Below are positions 23,599 to 31,927 of a stretch of 32,000 nucleotides of DNA, piece by piece. A program made the translations under genes and the position numbers. Numbering within the stretch: position 1 is the stretch's first letter; each line of letters starts with the position of its first letter. A model generated the notes under the pieces. The model did not search any database, was not told where the DNA came from, and worked only from the letters and a program-made list of their open reading frames with translations. Source of the stretch: Candidatus Caldarchaeales archaeon (GTDB lineage Archaea; Thermoproteota; Nitrososphaeria_A; Caldarchaeales; Calditenuaceae); assembly GCA_039630085.1 (NCBI GenBank), contig JBCNVM010000010.1, positions 17,090 through 49,089 of the forward strand, in the 5' to 3' direction.

Positions 23599-24282
23599 TC
23601 ACTCTATCAGCGGCAGCACCTCTCCGACCACGTAGTCGAGGAAGTCGGACTCGGAGATCCTGCTGAAGGCGGTCACGACGCAGTTCCTGGTGAGCCCGTA
23701 GATCCTCCCGCCCTCTTTCGTGGCGTAGACGATGTACCAGATCTTCCCGTGCCTGAGGGCCTCGTCGTACATCGAGGTGTCCATCAGCGATGGCCCCGCG
23801 AGGGCCAGCTTGTCGACCCCGGGGTAGTCCACCTGGTCGAACCAGATCAGCCTCGTCGACTCGGGGTTCCGGTTGTGGAGCTCCACCAGCCTCTCGTGGG
23901 GGATCCTCGCCTCGACGATCGACCTGAAGTCGAGGAAGAGGGCGTGACTCAGGGTGGTCGCGACGTAGTTGGCGAAGTGCTTCTCCTGCATCACCACGAG
24001 CAGCAGCTTATCCCCCCTGTCCCTGAACTCTATGTACGCGTCGACCGTCTTCACCACCGGGACCGCCTTCCCCCTCTGCCGGACCCTGATCAGTTTGTCC
24101 CTGCTGAAGACCCCCGAGACCCTGTCCCTCTCGCCCCTGACGTCGTGGACATCCGTCACCAGCTCGACCTCGGTGTCGTCCTCCTTCGCGACCTCGACGC
24201 TCCTGAAGTCCTTCAGCTTCTGGGCTATCGCGCCGAGGCTCGACTTGGCCCTGACGTCAAAAATCTTCGCGGTCAGCACCAT
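23599..24282 (-). CDS. Hypothetical protein (227 aa), no family recognised
   Basis: Clean 227-aa ORF with native codon usage and mixed alpha/beta-like composition. It is the last gene of a same-strand cluster with the carbamoyltransferase (47-nt gap). Confidence 0.65.
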   Translation of the reverse strand: MVLTAKIFDVRAKSSLGAIAQKLKDFRSVEVAKEDDTEVELVTDVHDVRGERDRVSGVFSRDKLIRVRQRGKAVPVVKTVDAYIEFRDRGDKLLLVVMQEKHFANYVATTLSHALFLDFRSIVEARIPHERLVELHNRNPESTRLIWFDQVDYPGVDKLALAGPSLMDTSMYDEALRHGKIWYIVYATKEGGRIYGLTRNCVVTAFSRISESDFLDYVVGEVLPLIE

Positions 24283-26837: not shown

Positions 26838-26967
26838 TCTATGTTAAGACACACGTCGAACGTGCAGAGTCCGCATGGGAGCCGACGGGGCGCGATCACC
26901 CAAATATACCGGCCGGGGATGGTAGTGCGCGAAGGGCCCGTAACCGAGGTCATGGGCCAAGGGAAAT

Positions 26968-26979
26968 CAAATAAAAATA
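26968..26979 (+). promoter_or_regulatory. TATA box for the tRNA gene
   Basis: AAATAAAAATAC is centred about 29 nt upstream of tRNA position 1 (27003). Confidence 0.5.
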
Positions 26980-27002
26980 CCGGGAAGGCATGGATGGATG
27001 TA

Positions 27003-27091
27003 GGGCCTGAAGCTCTGCCAGGAAGAGCGCCCGGCCACATGGGGTGAGGCTCTTAACCGGGAGGTCCCGGGTTCAAATCCCGGCAGGCCCG
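27003..27091 (+). tRNA. tRNA-Lys: tRNA-Lys(CUU) with a 15-nt intron in the anticodon arm (non-canonical position)
   Basis: Hand-folded. Acceptor GGGCCTG/CAGGCCC, D arm GCTC-TGCCAGGAA-GAGC, anticodon stem CCCGG/CCGGG, variable AGGTC, T arm CCGGG-TTCAAAT-CCCGG, discriminator G, no encoded CCA. There are 22 nt between the anticodon stem halves. Removing CCACATGGGGTGAGG (27035-27049, or the equivalent 27036-27050) leaves the loop CTCTTAA, i.e. U33-CUU-A37. Confidence 0.8.
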
Positions 27092-27117
27092 CATTCCTGA
27101 CAATTCAAGATCAGGGA

Positions 27118-29121
27118 CTAGTAAACAATAATTATGGACAATCGGGAGTCGGAAAAATTCGAGGGGGGAGAGTCCGTCCTCTGAGTTCGTCTCGATTCCT
27201 CCGTTCTCATCACCTTATCCCTAAGCTTCGCAAGCTTGCGCGGTATCACGAAGCCGACTTTGGCCGCAAACGCCCGTAGCGAGGAGTATCGAATTCGAAT
27301 GCGGTAAAGGTCCTTCTTCGATATCGCTGGGTGGTCCGAGATCATCTTGACGTCGCCACCACGTCTGTGTAGATGTGGTCCAGTAGTTTCGATCTTTAAC
27401 GCACTTAGCTGCTCCTGCACGAATGTAAGGATCCGGACATCAGTGTTGTAGGCCTCTACTCCCACGCTAGAGGCGCACCCCTCCGCGTCGAAGAACCCGC
27501 GGAGGAATGCTGCCCGGCAGGCGTCGTTGAATTCAACGAATGGTCTGATTTTCTCGATCTGCCTTCTAGCTACCAGCTCGTAGAGAACTCTACTGCGCAC
27601 CTGTGCCCTATACATAACAGTTCCATTCCTCATGACCTTCTCAACTGCGGGCGCCGGTCGGCGCAAAACCATTTCTACACAGCGAGAGAATTCTTCAACA
27701 AATTCGCGATCCTTAGCGACAAGCACCAGAACGTACAGACCGTCCGCAGTCCTATACGTGTAGCCGTCGCCCATCATCACCCCGATGATATACGCGAGCT
27801 CCGGGGACGGCTCAAGTAGAACGATAGAGTCTTCTCTCCTCTCGCTTTCATTCTCCGTGTTTCTTTCAGGTTTCCTTCCAGGTTTTCTTAGACCTCTCGG
27901 CAAAGTTTCGCCCCGAAGCCATCTGTCGATAGTCGACGGGTGGAATCTCAGACCGTCCTTTGCGAGCTCCTTGGTGATCCGTCGATATCCGAGCCCCATC
28001 CGGTTGAGTTCACGCACTCGTTTCAGGATCTCATTCTGCCGCTCTGGTGTTTCTCCCAGCATATGTTTTAACCATTTTATTAAGCTGTTTTCATGGACAT
28101 GAATGCCCTCCCTTCGGAGTTCTGCGCGGATTCTATAGTACGGCAGCCCTTGCCGTCGTAGCTCAGCTGCACGATTCAGAACCCTTTCTCTGAGCTCTAT
28201 GCTGTCCTTGATGTGTTTCCACGTGTATATAGGAGGTTTAAAGACCATATCGCCGAGTATGTCGTAATCCCTGAACCAGCTCTCAAGTGTCCTTTCTGCT
28301 ATGTAGATCTTTTCCTCTTCTAACTTCCTCACGATCTCGCTCAGACTGAGTCCCTGTTGTCTGTACTCCAGTGCTTTTCTTAGGATAATGTCTTTGTATG
28401 TGCGCCACATCCAGACGTACCTGTAAATGATCTCTTTAGCCTCTCTAGGTTTCACGTGTTCCGCGTTAGTGTGCTCAGGTGTCGCACTCTCGGACGGTGT
28501 CGTCGCGACGATTTCTGCCATCTCAGCCTGATCAGGAGCAGAACTCTCGGGAGGTTCCTCGGCGATCTCGACGATTTCAGCATGTTCAGACGCTGTGATA
28601 TCGGGTGGCTTAGTGACGATTTTCGTAGTTTCGCCAGCAGCAGGAGTGACCACGATACTGCTTGTCGATCGGGCCCTTGGCACCGTGACAGGGGCGGGCA
28701 GATCTCTAGGCTTGTGGTGTCCCTTGATCCAGCCCCACAGTGTTCCCCGAGGCAGTTTTATGTTAAACTTTCTCCAAATTTCGGCGATAATTTGCCGATA
28801 CGTCGCCCCATCGTCACGTAGTCGTAGGACTTCATAATAGATCTGGCACCAGAGATCCGGAGATGAGCGTGGGAATCTCGCGCCAAAGTGCTTCCGTACC
28901 CAGTTATATATACTCGGATACGGCAGATCAATCCCCTCCTTCAAAAGTGTCCGACGAATTTCAGCAGGCCTGTGTCCAGCCGCTGCAAGAGTCAGGACTC
29001 GTTGTTTAAGGGTCGCAGGATATGGTATTCTTCTCCCCCCTTTCGTGGAATTTCGTCGGCTCTCGTCTACCGAAAAAGGAGACGAGACCGCTGAGTCTGG
29101 ACCCACCAAGCCGTCCGACAT
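27118..29121 (-). CDS. Multi-HTH (five tandem modules) / LAGLIDADG double-motif endonuclease fusion protein
   Basis: 667 aa. Five ~45-aa repeats of the pattern L..L...G.s..eI...L...GI.v...ti..W(l/v)(r/k), at about aa 36-79, 92-136, 243-285, 306-354 and 361-404. An acidic/Pro-rich repeat linker spans aa ~150-225. The C-terminal domain has LAYIIGVMMGDGY and AAFLRGFFDAEGC (LAGLIDADG motifs 1 and 2). GGAGGTGA lies 7 nt upstream of ATG 29121. Confidence 0.85.
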   Translation of the reverse strand: MSDGLVGPDSAVSSPFSVDESRRNSTKGGRRIPYPATLKQRVLTLAAAGHRPAEIRRTLLKEGIDLPYPSIYNWVRKHFGARFPRSSPDLWCQIYYEVLRLRDDGATYRQIIAEIWRKFNIKLPRGTLWGWIKGHHKPRDLPAPVTVPRARSTSSIVVTPAAGETTKIVTKPPDITASEHAEIVEIAEEPPESSAPDQAEMAEIVATTPSESATPEHTNAEHVKPREAKEIIYRYVWMWRTYKDIILRKALEYRQQGLSLSEIVRKLEEEKIYIAERTLESWFRDYDILGDMVFKPPIYTWKHIKDSIELRERVLNRAAELRRQGLPYYRIRAELRREGIHVHENSLIKWLKHMLGETPERQNEILKRVRELNRMGLGYRRITKELAKDGLRFHPSTIDRWLRGETLPRGLRKPGRKPERNTENESERREDSIVLLEPSPELAYIIGVMMGDGYTYRTADGLYVLVLVAKDREFVEEFSRCVEMVLRRPAPAVEKVMRNGTVMYRAQVRSRVLYELVARRQIEKIRPFVEFNDACRAAFLRGFFDAEGCASSVGVEAYNTDVRILTFVQEQLSALKIETTGPHLHRRGGDVKMISDHPAISKKDLYRIRIRYSSLRAFAAKVGFVIPRKLAKLRDKVMRTEESRRTQRTDSPPSNFSDSRLSIIIVY

Positions 29122-29277: not shown

Positions 29278-29451
29278 TCAGATGTTATCGAAGTGCCGGC
29301 GAAGACGCTTCTCGATCTCCTTGGCCCGCACCCAGACGGTCATCCCGACGGCGTCGGTCTCCTCGACCACCCTGAAGCAGGTGACCGGAAGACCGTAGAG
29401 AGCGCCTATCAGGTAGGCCGTCTGGGGCGGGCACTTCTCCCTAGGGTTCAT
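29278..29451 (-). CDS. Small hypothetical protein (57 aa)
   Basis: Hand translation: MNPREKCPPQTAYLIGALYGLPVTCFRVVEETDAVGMTVWVRAKEIEKRLRRHFDNI*. Its ATG lies 10 nt after the stop of the upstream membrane-protein gene and is preceded by GAGGAG. It competes with the + strand track ORF 29266..29469, which looks less protein-like. Confidence 0.45.
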   Translation of the reverse strand: MNPREKCPPQTAYLIGALYGLPVTCFRVVEETDAVGMTVWVRAKEIEKRLRRHFDNI

Positions 29452-29461
29452 GCTCCTCGGT

Positions 29462-29722
29462 TTAGATGAAGCTGATGATCAGCGGCAGCACTAGGTTGGC
29501 GAAGACCAGCGCTATTAGGCCCCCCGCCACCAGCCTCCAGCCAAGGAACTCCTGGCGGAAGCCGACGGCGATAAGGAGCCCCAGCGCGATCATCGCGACG
29601 CTCAGCACGTTGACGATCGGCACAGAAGCCTCTAAGATCGACAGTGTGATCTCCCTAACCATCTGCGAAATCTGCTGACCGACCTCTCGCGCAGTTATCA
29701 GAGCGATCAAATACGCGAACAT
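29462..29722 (-). CDS. Small membrane protein (86 aa, 2-3 TM), hypothetical
   Basis: From ATG 29722: MFAYLIALITAREVGQQISQMVREITLSILEASVPIVNVLSVAMIALGLLIAVGFRQEFLGWRLVAGGLIALVFANLVLPLIISFI. GGAGGTGA lies 7 nt upstream. The Arg/Gly-rich 32 aa upstream in the track ORF are unlikely to be coding. Confidence 0.6.
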   Translation of the reverse strand: MFAYLIALITAREVGQQISQMVREITLSILEASVPIVNVLSVAMIALGLLIAVGFRQEFLGWRLVAGGLIALVFANLVLPLIISFI

Positions 29723-29831
29723 GGCCCTCTCACCTCCACCCCTCGCGTCAACCCGTCCGAGCCGCCTCAGCGGGACTCCCGCCGTGGCTGGGCGGGGTTG
29801 CCCTCGGCGGCCCTTCATCCGGGTTTAAGCT

Positions 29832-29857
29832 CCGGGGCATGGGAAATGGTGCCCCGG
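29832..29857 (-). terminator. GC-rich hairpin downstream of the PriL-CTD-like gene, preceded by a T5 run on the minus strand
   Basis: CCGGGGCA-10 nt-TGCCCCGG, a perfect 8-bp stem. On the minus strand TTTTT (29874-29878) lies about 36 nt after the stop at 29915. The function (terminator or processing site) is unproven. Confidence 0.3.
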
Positions 29858-29914
29858 CCCCTGTTTAATGGGGAAAAATTTTGAGGGGTGGAGGTTCGGG
29901 GCCGTCAGGAAACG

Positions 29915-30370
29915 TCAGGATTTCCGCGATTCCTTCTCCTTCCTCGATGCGTACTGCATCGGGTTCTTTATGTTGACAGGACACAGCCTGCCGTTCTCGA
30001 CGCAGAGTCCGTGCGTTCTCATCGTCTGACACGAAGGCACGGTGTACTTCGTCCTCGATCCTCTGAGCCCTGCAATATGTTCTACCTGATACCTCGCGAC
30101 CCTCTCGTCGAAGTCCGGCCTCTGCGCGTAGAGTCCGATCACCTCGTCAACCGTGTGACCGGCGTTCAGCAGGTATGCCGCGACCCATCTGGTGTCCTCA
30201 GGAGCGCGTTCGTCTATCACGCGCTCGTATTTCCACCTGTAGAGCGTCTCGAGCTCTGGACGTTCTCGGCGGATGGCGTCCTCCAAAATCGGATAGGACC
30301 TCTTGACGACATCGACGACGTAGGCCAGGACTTCCGCGTCGGTCTCAGGTTCAAACTCAGGGGATCCCAC
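29915..30370 (-). CDS. Stand-alone DNA primase large subunit (PriL/p58) C-terminal Fe-S-domain-like protein
   Basis: 151 aa. AAYLLNAGHTVDEVIGLYAQRPDFDERVARYQVEHIAGLRGSRTKYTVPSCQTMRTHGLCVENGRLCPVNIKNPMQY closely resembles the conserved PriL-CTD block, for example human PRIM2 [21 protein letters not shown]...GCPFRH as I recall it. There is no PriL N-terminal domain. GTG start with GGTGA 6 nt upstream. Confidence 0.65.
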   Translation of the reverse strand: MGSPEFEPETDAEVLAYVVDVVKRSYPILEDAIRRERPELETLYRWKYERVIDERAPEDTRWVAAYLLNAGHTVDEVIGLYAQRPDFDERVARYQVEHIAGLRGSRTKYTVPSCQTMRTHGLCVENGRLCPVNIKNPMQYASRKEKESRKS

Positions 30371-30404
30371 ACCACATCACCACACCATAGTGAGTTATGG
30401 CCTA

Positions 30405-30414
30405 CTATAAAAAG
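30405..30414 (-). promoter_or_regulatory. TATA box (CTTTTTATAG on the minus strand) for the PriL-CTD-like operon
   Basis: Forward sequence is CTATAAAAAG. It lies about 40 nt upstream of GTG 30370 in a 98-nt AT-rich divergent spacer. Confidence 0.45.
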
Positions 30415-30447: not shown

Positions 30448-30468
30448 CACACATTCGGGGGTATTGTG

Positions 30469-30636
30469 ATGAGCGAGCAGAGGTTAAGAAAGACCACGAT
30501 CGAGATCTCCGTCAAGACCAAGGAGCGCCTCCTGCGGCTCAAAATTCATCCACGGGAGACATACGATGATGTCATAAATCGCTTGATTGAAGCCTTCGAA
30601 CGGAGTCGCAAATCTCCGCCGGCGAAATCAGCATGA
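30469..30636 (+). CDS. Ribbon-helix-helix / VapB-like antitoxin-type small protein (55 aa)
   Basis: Hand translation: MSEQRLRKTTIEISVKTKERLLRLKIHPRETYDDVINRLIEAFERSRKSPPAKSA*. The pattern (TI.IS..T.ERL..LK...ESY.DVI..LIE) is typical of small archaeal antitoxin-like proteins. Too short for the ORF track. Confidence 0.6.
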   Translation: MSEQRLRKTTIEISVKTKERLLRLKIHPRETYDDVINRLIEAFERSRKSPPAKSA

Positions 30637-30878
30637 AGGCGGAGGTATCACGTCTCCGCCGGCCTCCCGGGCGCGGTGTGCCGATCGCGAGCATAGGGAC
30701 CAAGACCATGCTGAGGAACGATCTTCGGAGCTGGGAAGAATATGAGAAGAGGGAAATGTCGGCTCATTTGCCACTCTCCGGGGCGCTTCGCGACTTCTTG
30801 GAAAACGCTGTCAGGTACGCAACAGGCTGGAGAAGATCGCTAGGAGGCATATCAGTCGGTGCGCTCTTAACAGCTTAA
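30633..30878 (+). CDS. Hypothetical protein (81 aa), possibly RHH-like
   Basis: Its ATG overlaps the upstream stop (ATGA). The segment TKTMLRNDLRSWEEYEKREMSAHLPLSGALRDFLENAV could form strand-helix-helix. It is not PIN-like. Confidence 0.4.
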   Translation: MKAEVSRLRRPPGRGVPIASIGTKTMLRNDLRSWEEYEKREMSAHLPLSGALRDFLENAVRYATGWRRSLGGISVGALLTA

Positions 30879-30901: not shown

Positions 30902-31153
30902 CTATGTGGCCTGAGACCAGACGCGATCGAACTCCGGCCTATACTGTGAGGCTAGGCGCTCGCCGATGAGCACGATGTTCTCGTCGTTCCTGTCCTCCGC
31001 GGAGACCGAGAAATTATAGCTACCCGTTATAACCAGCCGGCCGTCTATGACAACGAACTTGTGGTGCATGAGGTCGGAGTCGCCGTCGAGAGCCTCGGCA
31101 TGAACGCGAATATCGGCCCCGGATGAAAAGCGTGTCGTCCCTCTGTATCGTCG
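30902..31153 (-). pseudogene. PLD/Nuc-family HKD nuclease, C-terminal remnant
   Basis: Hand translation directly after the CopG-like stop, same frame: RRYRGTTRFSSGADIRVHAEALDGDSDLMHHKFVVIDGRLVITGSYNFSVSAEDRNDENIVLIGERLASQYRPEFDRVWSQAT*. It contains the HxK(x4)D...GS.N motif and an NDEN block. The only ATG (31069) would give 55 aa starting at the catalytic His. The N-terminal half of the fold is missing. Confidence 0.6.
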
Positions 31154-31408
31154 TCACGGAATTGCCACTGCACGGATTTGAACTGAACGAAGCGGGGATC
31201 TCAGGTTACGTCGTCGGGGCATTCCATTCACGTTCTCGGGGGATATCCGTTCATTAAGCCCGAACATCGCCTCCGCCTTGATGAAGTCCCTGACAGCCAT
31301 CCTGATAGCCTCGGATCTGTTCATATAGCGTCCGGCCTCGACCAGAGAGTCGATCGCCTCGAGATATGCATCAGGCATGTGAACGGCAACCACCCGCACC
31401 GTTATCAC
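31154..31408 (-). CDS. CopG/NikR-type ribbon-helix-helix protein with a non-RHH tail
   Basis: 84 aa, GTG start. VRVVAVHMPDAYLEAIDSLVEAGRYMNRSEAIRMAVRDFI is a canonical RHH. The last ~38 aa are Arg-rich and run into the HKD remnant across a TGA. Confidence 0.75.
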   Translation of the reverse strand: MITVRVVAVHMPDAYLEAIDSLVEAGRYMNRSEAIRMAVRDFIKAEAMFGLNERISPENVNGMPRRRNLRSPLRSVQIRAVAIP

Positions 31409-31550: not shown

Positions 31551-31667
31551 CTAAAAAAGAAGTATCTTCTCACTGAAGGGCGGGGAAGAGGCGAGGCTGA
31601 TGAAGACTAAAGCCGCGAGCGCGACCGAGGACGCAGTGCCCAGCGACTGCCTCCAGTTCAAGGCCAT
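31551..31667 (-). CDS. 38-aa single-TM ORF overlapping the nuoJ-like stop (possible truncated second half of NuoJ)
   Basis: TGATG overlap. MALNWRQSLGTASSVALAALVFISLASSPPFSEKILLF* ends in an AT-rich tail exactly at the island edge. Confidence 0.3.
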   Translation of the reverse strand: MALNWRQSLGTASSVALAALVFISLASSPPFSEKILLF

Positions 31668-31927
31668 CACACCGTCTCGTCCTTCCTCCTGGTGAACATG
31701 AGCACGACCATCAGCAGGGCCACAGCTCCCCCGGAGTAGGCGAGTATCTGGAAGAGCCCGACGAGGTGGGCGCCCATGACTACGAAGAGCAGTCCCAGTG
31801 AGGCCGTGAAGACGAGAAACCAGAGCGCGGTCCTGACGAGGCTTCTGGTCTCGATGGACATGATCGCCGAGAGCGTCGCGAGCAGCAGAAGGGCGGCCTC
31901 GAGCAGTCCCGCGTCCATCGGGGACAC
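31667..31927 (-). CDS. nuoJ: NADH-quinone oxidoreductase subunit J-like protein (N-terminal three TM helices only)
   Basis: 86 aa. RTALWFLVFTASLGLLFVVMGAHLVGLFQILAYSGGAVALLMVVLMF matches the conserved NuoJ/ND6 TM2-TM3 block (..A.FlA..QilVYaGAi.vL..F). Confidence 0.65.
   Translation of the reverse strand: MSPMDAGLLEAALLLLATLSAIMSIETRSLVRTALWFLVFTASLGLLFVVMGAHLVGLFQILAYSGGAVALLMVVLMFTRRKDETV

Follow-up and report, generated by a model that had tools for sequence, protein, structure and literature searches.

A PriL-like 151-aa ORF in a foreign segment of a Caldarchaeales genome, most likely a recently cut-off gene fragment

Introduction

The window considered here (the whole stretch of 32,000 nucleotides analysed, from contig JBCNVM010000010.1 in the MAG of a hot-spring archaeon, Candidatus Caldarchaeales) contains a 151-aa ORF that a preliminary description had likened to the C-terminal domain (CTD) of the primase large subunit PriL, and for which a role in modulating host priming from within a mobile element had been proposed. 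The question raised by this locus is whether such an isolated PriL-like protein is a new replication factor or a piece of a housekeeping gene. The second alternative, a gene fragment cut off recently, is the most likely one for the 151-aa ORF.

The 151-aa ORF and its similarity to PriL

The 151-aa ORF (MEN3048314.1 = ABDH63_05990, annotated as 'hypothetical protein' and identical to the database protein P0001) and the 86-aa and 57-aa genes beside it occupy the positions previously described, according to the ORF list. The roles given below to the TATA-like and SD-like motifs, which were read from the sequence, are putative and follow the general archaeal promoter and SD consensus.

29915..30370, minus strand: 151-aa ORF with a GTG start (ORF list)
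29918..30184, minus strand: PriL-homologous C-terminal block, residues 63-151 (profile of 135 PriLs)
30185..30370, minus strand: orphan N-terminal 62 residues, matching no part of PriL significantly
30376-30381, minus strand: putative SD-like GGTGAT, ending 5 nt upstream of the GTG
30406-30413, minus strand: putative TATA-like element TTTTTATA, ending 35 nt upstream of the GTG
29874..29878, minus strand: T5 tract, presumed to act as a terminator (candidate archaeal terminator), 36 nt past the stop of the 151-aa ORF

The PriL match, first proposed from an alignment by eye, is far beyond chance. It was recovered using Pfam PF04104 DNA_primase_lrg (E=3.5e-15, 56.5 bits for a cut-off of 22.4; ORF residues 61-140 on profile positions 131-219 of 266), NCBIfam PriL NF002589 (E=1.4e-31; residues 63-149 on model positions 264-346 of 348) and our own profile built from 135 PriLs (159 bits, aligning to residues 63-150 only). 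The NCBIfam score, 110 bits, is below the cut-off of 339 set for a full-length PriL equivalog. Of the CTD, the ORF holds the distal part alone: the earlier assignment to the conserved CTD block stands for residues 63-151, and fails for residues 1-62, which are not detectably PriL. The PriS-docking N-terminal domain (PF26466 DNA_primase_lrg_N) was correctly described as missing, being found neither in the ORF nor in any frame of the window, whereas genuine PriL relatives have both PF26466 and PF04104.

The block of residues 63-151 includes RYQVEHIAGLRGSRTKY together with C114, C123 and C130, three of the four cysteines of the Fe-S cluster and the only Cys of the ORF, as had been counted. The four Cys that ligate the [4Fe-4S] cluster in PriL are therefore not all present, since the ORF lacks the near-invariant Cys of the PPC motif; the conserved His that follows this Cys is missing as well. 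Of the 129 homologues that extend for 65 residues or more upstream of YQVEH, 12 fail a strict P[PEA]C pattern. Most of the 12 were seen on inspection to retain the Cys as APC or SPC, and the first Cys is truly absent only in the 151-aa ORF and two doubtful sequences. An apparent second short PriL without this Cys (P0120) was discarded on account of its origin in a read-level catalogue and its probably chimeric nature, and a 2565-aa match (P0035) proved to be a false positive due to a repeat protein.

The block is identical to residues 255-342 of the host PriL at 62 of 89 positions, and shares 70-73% identity with the C-terminal ~85-89 residues of PriLs from Caldarchaeales, or Aigarchaeota (P0218, P0213, P0210), the closest PriL known being 73% identical. 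Similarity to the host PriL passes abruptly from 70% to none at residue 62/63 (around nt 30184). An NJ tree places the block as sister to the host PriL clade, with a branch length of 0.12 (0.13-0.20 for genuine PriLs), hence without lengthening. None of the 16 positions of the block that are conserved in at least 90% of 256 PriLs deviates, and its dN/dS of 0.12-0.19 is comparable to that of PriL-versus-PriL comparisons (0.17-0.19). Taken together, the normal branch length, the absence of deviations and the PriL-like dN/dS suggest that the block was part of a working PriL until recently. They also dismiss an old, neutrally decaying pseudogene, as real PriLs have the same branch length and dN/dS.

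A first AF2 model of the ORF (pLDDT 69.8) gave no meaningful fold matches. In a later AF2 model the block has a pLDDT of 77-94, and the local Foldseek matches of this model are eukaryotic primase Fe-S domains (prob 0.8-0.9, E>0.1).

The ORF has a coding-like composition (GC1/2/3 of 0.59/0.43/0.72). No relative of the whole ORF was found among 1.84 billion representatives or 5.8 billion clusters, and its 90% identity cluster has one member, making it a singleton. The survey of plasmids and viruses suggested earlier likewise returned no relatives in viral contigs, a phage collection or a plasmid collection. Nothing was found in genome-contig searches or in exact-protein contig look-ups (with the 151-aa ORF, the host PriL and the flanking genes).

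The orphan N-terminus

The first 62 residues are acidic (net charge -6), Cys-free and predicted to form helices at residues 11-25 and 27-53 (AF2 model). Their GC1/2/3 of 0.68/0.38/0.70 follows a coding-like pattern, and GC3 is equal across the 62/63 junction (0.70 and 0.74). No homologues of this segment were returned, a weak negative given that the same search also missed the ORF itself. A diverged first part of the CTD was rejected by non-significant profile tests (scores reached by 600/1000, 18/1000 and 135/1000 shuffles), and the placement of the region by MAFFT differs among three alignments (A1, A2, A3). A marginal match to the extreme N-terminus of PriL ('YPFl..'; 6/500 and 25/2000 shuffles using a broad profile) was not significant with clade profiles; this resemblance, which would imply an origin by internal deletion, is kept as a marginal lead. 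A 14/15-residue match, ETLYRWKYERVI.ER, to bacterial membrane proteins encoded beside ThsB-TIR genes (L001-L003) was rejected, as its 35-37 bits are at chance level for a database of that size.

An intact priL elsewhere in the genome

The full-length priL that the preliminary description had recommended looking for is present on another contig of the same MAG: P0218 (ABDH63_05690) is an intact protein of 351 aa with both DNA_primase_lrg_N and DNA_primase_lrg domains. The 151-aa ORF is thus a supernumerary copy, which dismisses the idea that it is the 3' half of a split housekeeping gene. A split or frameshifted priL is also dismissed by a six-frame scan of the whole window using the PriL profile, which revealed no other PriL piece. 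A recent duplicate of the host priL was excluded on three grounds, namely a block identity of 72%, a GC3 of 0.72-0.76 (versus 0.94 in flanking host genes) and the branching of the block outside the host clade. In relatives, priL lies in a housekeeping eIF2alpha-HD-priL neighbourhood, none of which is found near the 151-aa ORF.

A foreign segment next to a tRNA gene

The foreign nature of the surrounding island, previously assumed, is supported by composition, by singleton genes and by comparison with a relative. GC and GC3 fall after position 27000, GC3 being 0.56-0.84 within the segment and 0.94 for the flanking host genes; the genes of the island are singletons, as opposed to host genes, for which 4-5 relatives reach at least 90% identity; and at the same site of a related MAG (L005) the tRNA gene is directly followed by a 2-oxoacid-dehydrogenase E2 gene, without the segment. 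With its deviant composition, adjacency to a tRNA gene and absence at the site in relatives, the segment has the marks of an integrated element or genomic island. Two features mark its left edge.

27003..27092, plus strand: tRNA gene bordering the foreign segment on the left (ARAGORN Val-CAC; Rfam tRNA, 47.6 bits)
26934..26953, plus strand: relic of the 5' end of the relatives' tRNA (alignment with MAGs L005 and L008)

By comparison with relatives, the tRNA gene at 27003..27092 is rearranged, and may be that of a Lys-CUU tRNA carrying a 15-nt insertion. At the relic, identity to the relatives continues through GGGCCCGTA and then breaks, and no other copy of the 3' half of their tRNA is present in the window. 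Neither an integrase nor a recombinase was detected in the visible part of the segment, and no att-type repeat of either version of the tRNA was found; the right end may lie past the window, the contig extending for a further ~17 kb. When looked up, island proteins occurred in NCBI records only, and flanking host proteins also in Logan assemblies.

The segment contains the following other genes.

27118..29121, minus strand: 667-aa protein with HTH repeats and a LAGLIDADG homing-endonuclease domain (MEN3048311.1)
29278..29451, minus strand: 57-aa hypothetical ORF (MEN3048312.1 = ABDH63_05980), a singleton
29462..29722, minus strand: 86-aa membrane protein with its ATG at 29722 (118 aa in the same frame from 29818)
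30466..30636, plus strand: 56-aa DUF7557 / VapB-like protein, divergent (DUF7557 E=5.4e-11, VAPB_antitox E=1.7e-4)
30902..31153, minus strand: 3' fragment of a PLD/Nuc-type nuclease gene with an HKD motif (PLDc_2 profile positions 81-132 of 132 only)
31154..31408, minus strand: 84-aa ribbon-helix-helix (RHH; CopG / CdrS-like) protein (profile matches)

The 667-aa protein matches Pfam LAGLIDADG_3 (E=6.4e-13), a PHROG endonuclease and PADLOC HEase; its cluster size is 1, without relatives in genome contigs or viral contigs. The PLD fragment is DrmC/NucT-like, has an open frame of just 84 codons and directly borders the RHH stop codon.

The 86-aa protein has two strong TM segments (36-54 and 68-86), in agreement with the 2-3 previously announced, and a GC3 of 0.79. 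It has no family match (PHROGs, NCBIfam, PADLOC and viral contigs were all empty), Pfam giving a weak DUF7322 match alone (E=0.041). The 57-aa ORF (GC3 of 0.84) has a weak DUF7209 match alone in Pfam (E=0.2) and no relatives in viral contigs; that it is a LAGLIDADG fragment was not supported by BLASTP against the 667-aa protein. The gap of 10 nt between the two genes is as described. Strong SD motifs had been attributed to both; the signals are in fact mixed, with GGAGGTGA 7 nt before the ATG of the 86-aa gene and a GAGGAG only 1 nt from the ATG of the 57-aa gene. The case for an operon uniting them with the 151-aa ORF is weak: a 192-nt spacer containing the T5 tract lies in between, so that a single operon is not shown.

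No PriS or PrimPol gene was found among the eight island ORFs and 20 larger host ORFs scanned in the window, consistent with the earlier observation; as the right end of the island is outside the window, this absence applies to the visible part only.

Comparison with known systems

The ORF differs from Caldarchaeales PriL by the lack of DNA_primase_lrg_N, of the linker and of the first CTD helix (bearing the PPC motif and the His), by its unrelated 62-residue N-terminus and by the absence of the eIF2alpha-HD-priL context.

PriX is the third primase subunit of Saccharolobus solfataricus (PDB 4WYH, 5OF3; PMC5700102), an Fe-S_N-like six-helix bundle without cluster and with an RKR NTP site, encoded by a conserved and essential cellular gene (PMC5700102, PMC5862659). 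Like PriX, the 151-aa ORF encodes a small separate protein, akin to the PriL Fe-S domain and present beside a full PriL, and the N-terminal tail by which PriX is tethered is a conceivable model for the orphan N-terminus. Unlike PriX, it retains the three distal Cys, is without the first helix of the domain and, located in foreign DNA, is a singleton. PriX chains were not matched: the sequence search of PDB gave the PriL chain 5of3_B only (E=0.57), and the top Foldseek matches were eukaryotic PriL CTDs, without PriX.

PriL-CTD-related modules are known from mobile elements (PriCT-1, PriCT-2 and the PriL-like domain of PolpTN2), where an AEP catalytic domain is part of the same protein or encoded alongside, and where the resemblance to PriL is remote (PMC5862659, PMC3973330). 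The 151-aa ORF, in contrast, is ~70% identical to cellular PriL and stands alone with no AEP nearby. No PriCT was detected in it at E<=1 using Pfam, a weak RepB_primase_C match alone being obtained (E=0.005, below its cut-off), and no AEP was found among the scanned ORFs of the window.

Gene-end fragments are also carried or left behind by integrating elements, as exemplified by the duplicated 3' end of icd in E. coli associated with e14 and phage 21. The likeness consists in a well-conserved piece from the 3' end of a housekeeping gene, situated in or at an island and accompanied by an intact gene; the difference is that here no att junction is identifiable, the intact gene is on another contig and no integrase is seen.

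Origin of the 151-aa ORF

The explanation that we favour, and to which we give an even chance, is that the 151-aa ORF is a chimeric remnant of a priL truncated recently. The 3'-terminal ~270 nt of a Caldarchaeales-type priL would have become fused, in frame, with an unrelated coding sequence of 186 nt, via deletion or illegitimate recombination, possibly as an internal deletion of a full-length gene. The donor would be a lineage just outside the host PriL clade, either a related archaeon or a priL-capturing mobile element. The fragment lies in a strain-specific, compositionally foreign and partly decayed segment inserted at a tRNA gene, whose other genes encode a free-standing LAGLIDADG endonuclease, small RHH/VapB-like proteins and a PLD nuclease in truncated form, and the cell would prime with its intact 351-aa PriL encoded elsewhere. 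Having neither the PriS-docking domain nor the first-Cys helix nor the conserved His, the product would be unable to act as a primase large subunit, and we infer that it has no dedicated function.

This reading is based on the restriction of PriL similarity to residues 63-151 with its abrupt stop, the failure of the N-terminus in profile tests, the loss of a first Cys kept by nearly all homologues, the unaltered branch length, conserved sites and dN/dS of the block, the singleton status, the intact host PriL, the foreign setting, the fragmentary PLD neighbour and the sub-cut-off NCBIfam score. Against it, the ORF is intact, with TATA-like and GGTGAT SD-like motifs at plausible distances; its N-terminus has coding-like GC and is predicted to be helical, neither of which is required of random in-frame read-through; and purifying selection on a functional small protein predicts the same retention of conserved residues. 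Moreover, as no donor PriL above 73% identity is known, 'recent' depends on an unsampled lineage, and the ~17 kb of contig past the window could hold partner genes.

That the ORF encodes a functional stand-alone protein, derived from PriL and belonging to a mobile element, that acts as a PriX-like accessory or as a dominant-negative decoy of host priming, is possible though unlikely. The retained block (YQVEH region and three-Cys cluster site) would bind the template, the primer 5' end or an NTP, and the new acidic N-terminal helices would dock onto host PriS/PriL or another partner. The intact ORF with its TATA-like and SD-like signals, the 16 of 16 conserved positions kept with a low dN/dS, and the coding-like, predicted helical N-terminus all fit such a protein, and three-Cys [4Fe-4S] sites with a non-Cys fourth ligand occur in other proteins. 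PriX provides a precedent for an extra PriL-CTD-related subunit anchored by an N-terminal tail (PMC5700102). For the hijacker, accessory or decoy proposed in the preliminary description, no positive evidence was obtained, and the incomplete CTD, the abrupt loss of similarity to the host PriL at residue 62/63, the singleton status, the unchanged constraint on the block and the fragmentary PLD neighbour lean against it. The ORF belongs to no family and was found neither in viral contigs nor in the collections of phages and plasmids. Both the first-Cys helix and the conserved His are missing, and R306 of human PriL, a residue critical for initiation, falls in this part of the CTD (PMC5700102). 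No shift in rate or constraint, as expected of a long-standing new function, is seen in the block, no replication gene is visible nearby, and PriX and PriCT resemble the Fe-S_N half (PMC5862659), whose first helix the ORF has lost. The more specific version, a minimal three-Cys PriL Fe-S derivative with an acidic docking segment, which would be encoded by the element, maintained by selection and bound to the host primase or the primer-template so as to modulate host priming or act as its decoy through an interface undescribed so far, is distinctly unlikely.

A copy of a gene end of the attachment-site type is very improbable. An element integrating in the 3' part of priL would carry a replacement 3' end, or would later have carried along the displaced original one, the upstream 62 codons being element sequence in frame by chance. 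Such an origin agrees with the sharp homology boundary, with the location of the island at an integration hotspot and with a block evolving like working PriL, as periodic service as a real priL 3' end would entail. However, no integrase is visible, the fragment lies inside the segment instead of at an edge, another contig carries an intact host priL and relatives have theirs in a housekeeping context, 270 nt is long for such an overlap, and the ORF has promoter-like and SD-like signals of its own.

Least probable of all is an assembly or binning artefact in which a chimeric join inside the priL of a co-occurring strain mimics a truncation, as could be suspected from the MAG origin of the contig, the abrupt break at ~nt 30184 and the occurrence of island proteins in NCBI records only (flanking host proteins being also in Logan assemblies), but is countered by the same GC3 on either side of the junction, by the coherent frame, start codon and upstream signals, and by the complete absence here of the relatives' eIF2alpha-HD-priL neighbourhood.

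Significance

If functional, the 151-aa ORF would represent the first case of a stand-alone, cluster-proximal piece of PriL employed outside the replicative primase. It would then also offer a natural experiment as to the portions of the Fe-S domain that are self-sufficient, with bearing on the debated role of the cluster. If it is a young remnant, which we consider likelier, its value is modest: it would record the movement of pieces of a core replication gene through a tRNA-linked variable region in Caldarchaeales, and would serve as a warning that annotating short ORFs of MAG islands with the "DNA_primase_lrg" domain can imply impossible functions.

The PriL match of the 151-aa ORF

The product of the 151-aa ORF (NCBI MEN3048314.1, 'hypothetical protein ABDH63_05990', Candidatus Caldarchaeales MAG, 49,089-bp contig) matched the Pfam DNA_primase_lrg profile significantly (E=3.5e-15; residues 61-140 on profile positions 131-219 of 266), as well as the NCBIfam PriL model NF002589 (E=1.4e-31). 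With residues 63-149 alone aligned, to model positions 264-346 of 348, the latter score (110 bits) stays below the equivalog cut-off of 339. A profile of 135 near-full-length PriLs aligned with residues 63-150 only (159 bits), and BLASTP against the host's own PriL gave 62/89 identities (ORF 63-151 on PriL 255-342) and nothing upstream of this block. Three cysteines were counted, in agreement with the preliminary description (C114, C123 and C130; none before residue 114); the PPC-type cysteine and its following His are present in essentially all of the 129 homologues with enough upstream sequence. The proposed likeness to the PriL C-terminal domain (CTD) is therefore kept for its distal part: since homology stops at residue 63, the N-terminus is unmatched and the first Cys is missing, the protein is, judging by its sequence, the distal ~89 residues of the CTD with three of four cluster ligands, and not a whole CTD.

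The better AF2 model (mean pLDDT 79.7; 77-94 across residues 61-150) gave local Foldseek matches to the eukaryotic primase Fe-S domains 8v6g_C, 8g9l_B, 3lgb and 5f0q (prob 0.8-0.9); as their E-values stay above 0.1, the predicted structure supports the PriL assignment weakly.

The N-terminal 62 residues are acidic (net charge -6), predicted to be helical and, on alignment evidence, an orphan sequence fused to the PriL block. Compared with the 100 PriL residues expected before the block, they scored at shuffle level. Likeness to the extreme PriL N-terminus ('YPFl..') was marginal, the score being reached by 6/500 and 25/2000 shuffles, and MAFFT positioned the region differently in three alignments. 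A homologue search with these residues returned no candidate with shared words, an unreliable negative given that it also missed the full ORF present in the database. Residues 40-55 are identical at 14/15 positions to the motif METLYRWKYE(W/R)VI(K/D)ER of bacterial two-TM proteins (147-165 aa) adjoining ThsB-type TIR genes in three metagenome loci (L001, 9848-10291; L002, 237-734; L003, 1086-1541). These are the sole metagenome matches, and the shared 15-residue motif was judged to be due to chance, given the database size; the pairing of TM protein and ThsB may itself be a Thoeris-like module.

The 90% cluster of the ORF protein has one member. Among 1.84 billion representatives, 858 matches were obtained, the best 150 of which cover almost only residues ~55-150 and none of which has the whole ORF architecture. 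IMG/VR, INPHARED phages, PLSDB plasmids and GTDB genomes yielded no relatives.

Genomic setting

Features of the segment (window positions)
27003-27092, tRNA gene at the island edge, preceding the low-GC3 segment
27118-29121, minus strand, 667-aa singleton with about five HTH-like repeats and a LAGLIDADG endonuclease domain, directly adjoining the tRNA gene
29278-29451, minus strand, 57-aa ORF, 10 nt after the 86-aa gene
29462-29722, minus strand, 86-aa ORF (118 aa with the ATG at 29818 as start)
29915-30370, minus strand, 151-aa ORF, GTG start in the ORF list
30466-30878, plus strand, divergent DUF7557/VapB-like 56-aa gene and 81-aa ORF, 4-nt overlap (ATGA)
30902-31408, minus strand, RHH (CopG / CdrS / aCcr1-like) gene, then 5'-truncated PLD/Nuc (DrmC/NucT-like) fragment
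31551-31927, minus strand, NuoJ-like 86-aa ORF of host-like GC3 (0.87), then 38-codon hydrophobic ORF

Housekeeping genes of the host (LysRS, ThiF-type, OTCase and HMGL-like among them) extend up to 26837, with a GC3 of 0.94-0.95 in three of the host genes (HMGL-like, OTCase and a 227-aa ORF at 23599-24282). Right of the tRNA gene GC3 is 0.56-0.84, up to about 31550. In L005, a related MAG (GCA_033581555.1), a tRNA comes after the HMGL gene, with a 2-oxoacid-dehydrogenase E2 gene immediately behind it. Host genes near the island are represented in other MAGs by 4-5 relatives (>=90% identity); of the island's proteins, three (667, 57 and 151 aa) are present in the collection, all as singletons. 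The GC3 drop, the singletons and the L005 arrangement support a foreign origin of the island described earlier, which is a strain-variable insertion site. Its visible part contains no integrase and, as had been stated for the island, no PriS or PrimPol was seen among the window ORFs scanned (the eight of the island and 20 of the larger host ORFs); its right end is not identifiable in the window, and the ~17 kb of contig beyond may contain it.

The match between the window and its relatives extends 9 nt into their tRNA (26934-26942) before the sequences diverge, and no other copy of the 3' half of that tRNA occurs anywhere in the window. The relatives' gene is tRNA-Lys(CUU)-like with a ~29-nt intron. 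Its relic in the window comprises the first ~9-20 nt; 50 nt further on lies a different complete tRNA, in which the acceptor, anticodon and T stems show compensatory changes and 15 nt are inserted. It was called Val(CAC) by ARAGORN; the loop CTCTTAA, common to the relatives, suggests Lys(CUU). The tRNA at the island edge appears replaced (window 26934-27092 vs L005 8300-8420 and L008 50-138). In 2/3 related assemblies (L006 and L008) contigs end within ~250 nt of the tRNA gene, in keeping with heterogeneity between strains at this site.

The 667-aa protein has no Hint/intein domain; its gene may serve the mobility or targeting of the insertion. The 81-aa ORF, with no family match and a weak coding signal, possibly forms a decayed toxin-antitoxin pair with the DUF7557/VapB-like gene. 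The PLD/Nuc 3' fragment (profile positions 81-132 of 132) has only 84 open codons and abuts the RHH stop; together they look like a decayed nuclease module. The 38-codon ORF overlaps the stop codon of the NuoJ-like ORF, and its end coincides with the start of the low-GC3 segment; the insertion may have cut a host membrane-complex operon here, or the region may be rearranged relative to L005.

The three minus-strand ORFs of 151, 86 and 57 aa lie where they had been placed. Upstream of the GTG are TTTTTATA (30406-30413) and GGTGAT (30376-30381). The proposed operon is weakly supported where the PriL-like gene is concerned: 192 nt of spacer separate it from the 86-aa gene, and they contain a T5 tract (29874-29878) 36 nt past its stop. 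The two small genes, 10 nt apart, may be co-transcribed. Of the strong SD motifs ascribed to both, the 86-aa gene has GGAGGTGA 7 nt ahead of its ATG, and the 57-aa gene has GAGGAG only 1 nt from its own. The 86-aa protein, described as having 2-3 TM segments, has two strong ones. Neither small protein has family matches (Pfam, NCBIfam, PHROGs, PADLOC) or relatives in viral contigs.

Origin of the PriL block

A full-length PriL (P0218, 'hypothetical protein ABDH63_05690 [Candidatus Caldarchaeales archaeon]', 351 aa) was found by profile search, with DNA_primase_lrg_N and DNA_primase_lrg domains and intact WPPCM and GHFGNF. Its gene lies on a 57.6-kb contig and was assigned to the same MAG because the locus-tag prefix is common to both. 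In relatives the context is housekeeping, eIF2alpha-(Nop10)-HD-priL. With P0218 intact and no other PriL piece in any frame of the whole window, a split housekeeping priL is ruled out. In one PriL homologue, P0094 (725 aa), the first Fe-S cysteine is the exact site of an intein-like insert ('...VVHNC...').

An alignment of 83 residues gave the ORF 73% identity with P0213 (another Caldarchaeales PriL), 72% with the host PriL and 66-71% with further PriLs of Caldarchaeales; host PriL and P0213 are 84% identical. An NJ tree placed the ORF as sister to a clade with the host PriL; measured from that node, its branch (0.12) does not exceed those of genuine PriLs (0.13-0.20). The 72% identity and the branching outside the host clade reject a recent copy of host priL. 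None of 16 positions conserved at >=90% among 256 PriLs deviates in the ORF, and Nei-Gojobori dN/dS is 0.12-0.19 for the block vs P0213 and P0210 (also a Caldarchaeales PriL) and 0.19 between these two, at a dS of ~1-1.8, near saturation. The PriL-like branch, dN/dS and conserved positions reject an old, neutrally decaying pseudogene: either the block would until recently have belonged to a functional PriL in a donor not yet sampled, or PriL-like selection would be acting on it. The N-terminal part has a GC3 of 0.70 and the block one of 0.74 (flanking host genes, 0.94); composition does not date the event, since PriL genes of the group span 0.58 to 0.90.

Interpretation

The product cannot serve as a primase large subunit. 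We give about an even chance to the ORF being a young chimeric remnant of priL, because the homology boundary is abrupt with the first-Cys helix and NTD lost, because it is a singleton in which the evolutionary regime of the block is unaltered, and because the neighbourhood bears fragments and the host PriL is intact. The main rival, the earlier idea of a functional stand-alone module modulating host priming, is rather unlikely; its only support is an intact ORF with plausible signals and conserved residues kept. PriX, an extra PriL-CTD-related primase subunit tethered through its N-terminal tail (PMC5700102), offers a precedent, but both PriX and the PriCT domains are similar to the Fe-S_N half (PMC5862659), of which the ORF has lost the first helix. 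An att-type gene-end copy is very improbable, and an assembly chimera marginally more so.

No family of stand-alone three-Cys PriL C-terminal modules was found described in the literature surveyed; on sequence grounds the architecture seems new, represented by one sequence in which selection particular to this form has left no sign. According to PMC5862659, PriL occurs almost exclusively in cells. According to the favoured reading, a young, chimeric priL remnant would either have entered a decaying foreign segment or have arisen inside it.
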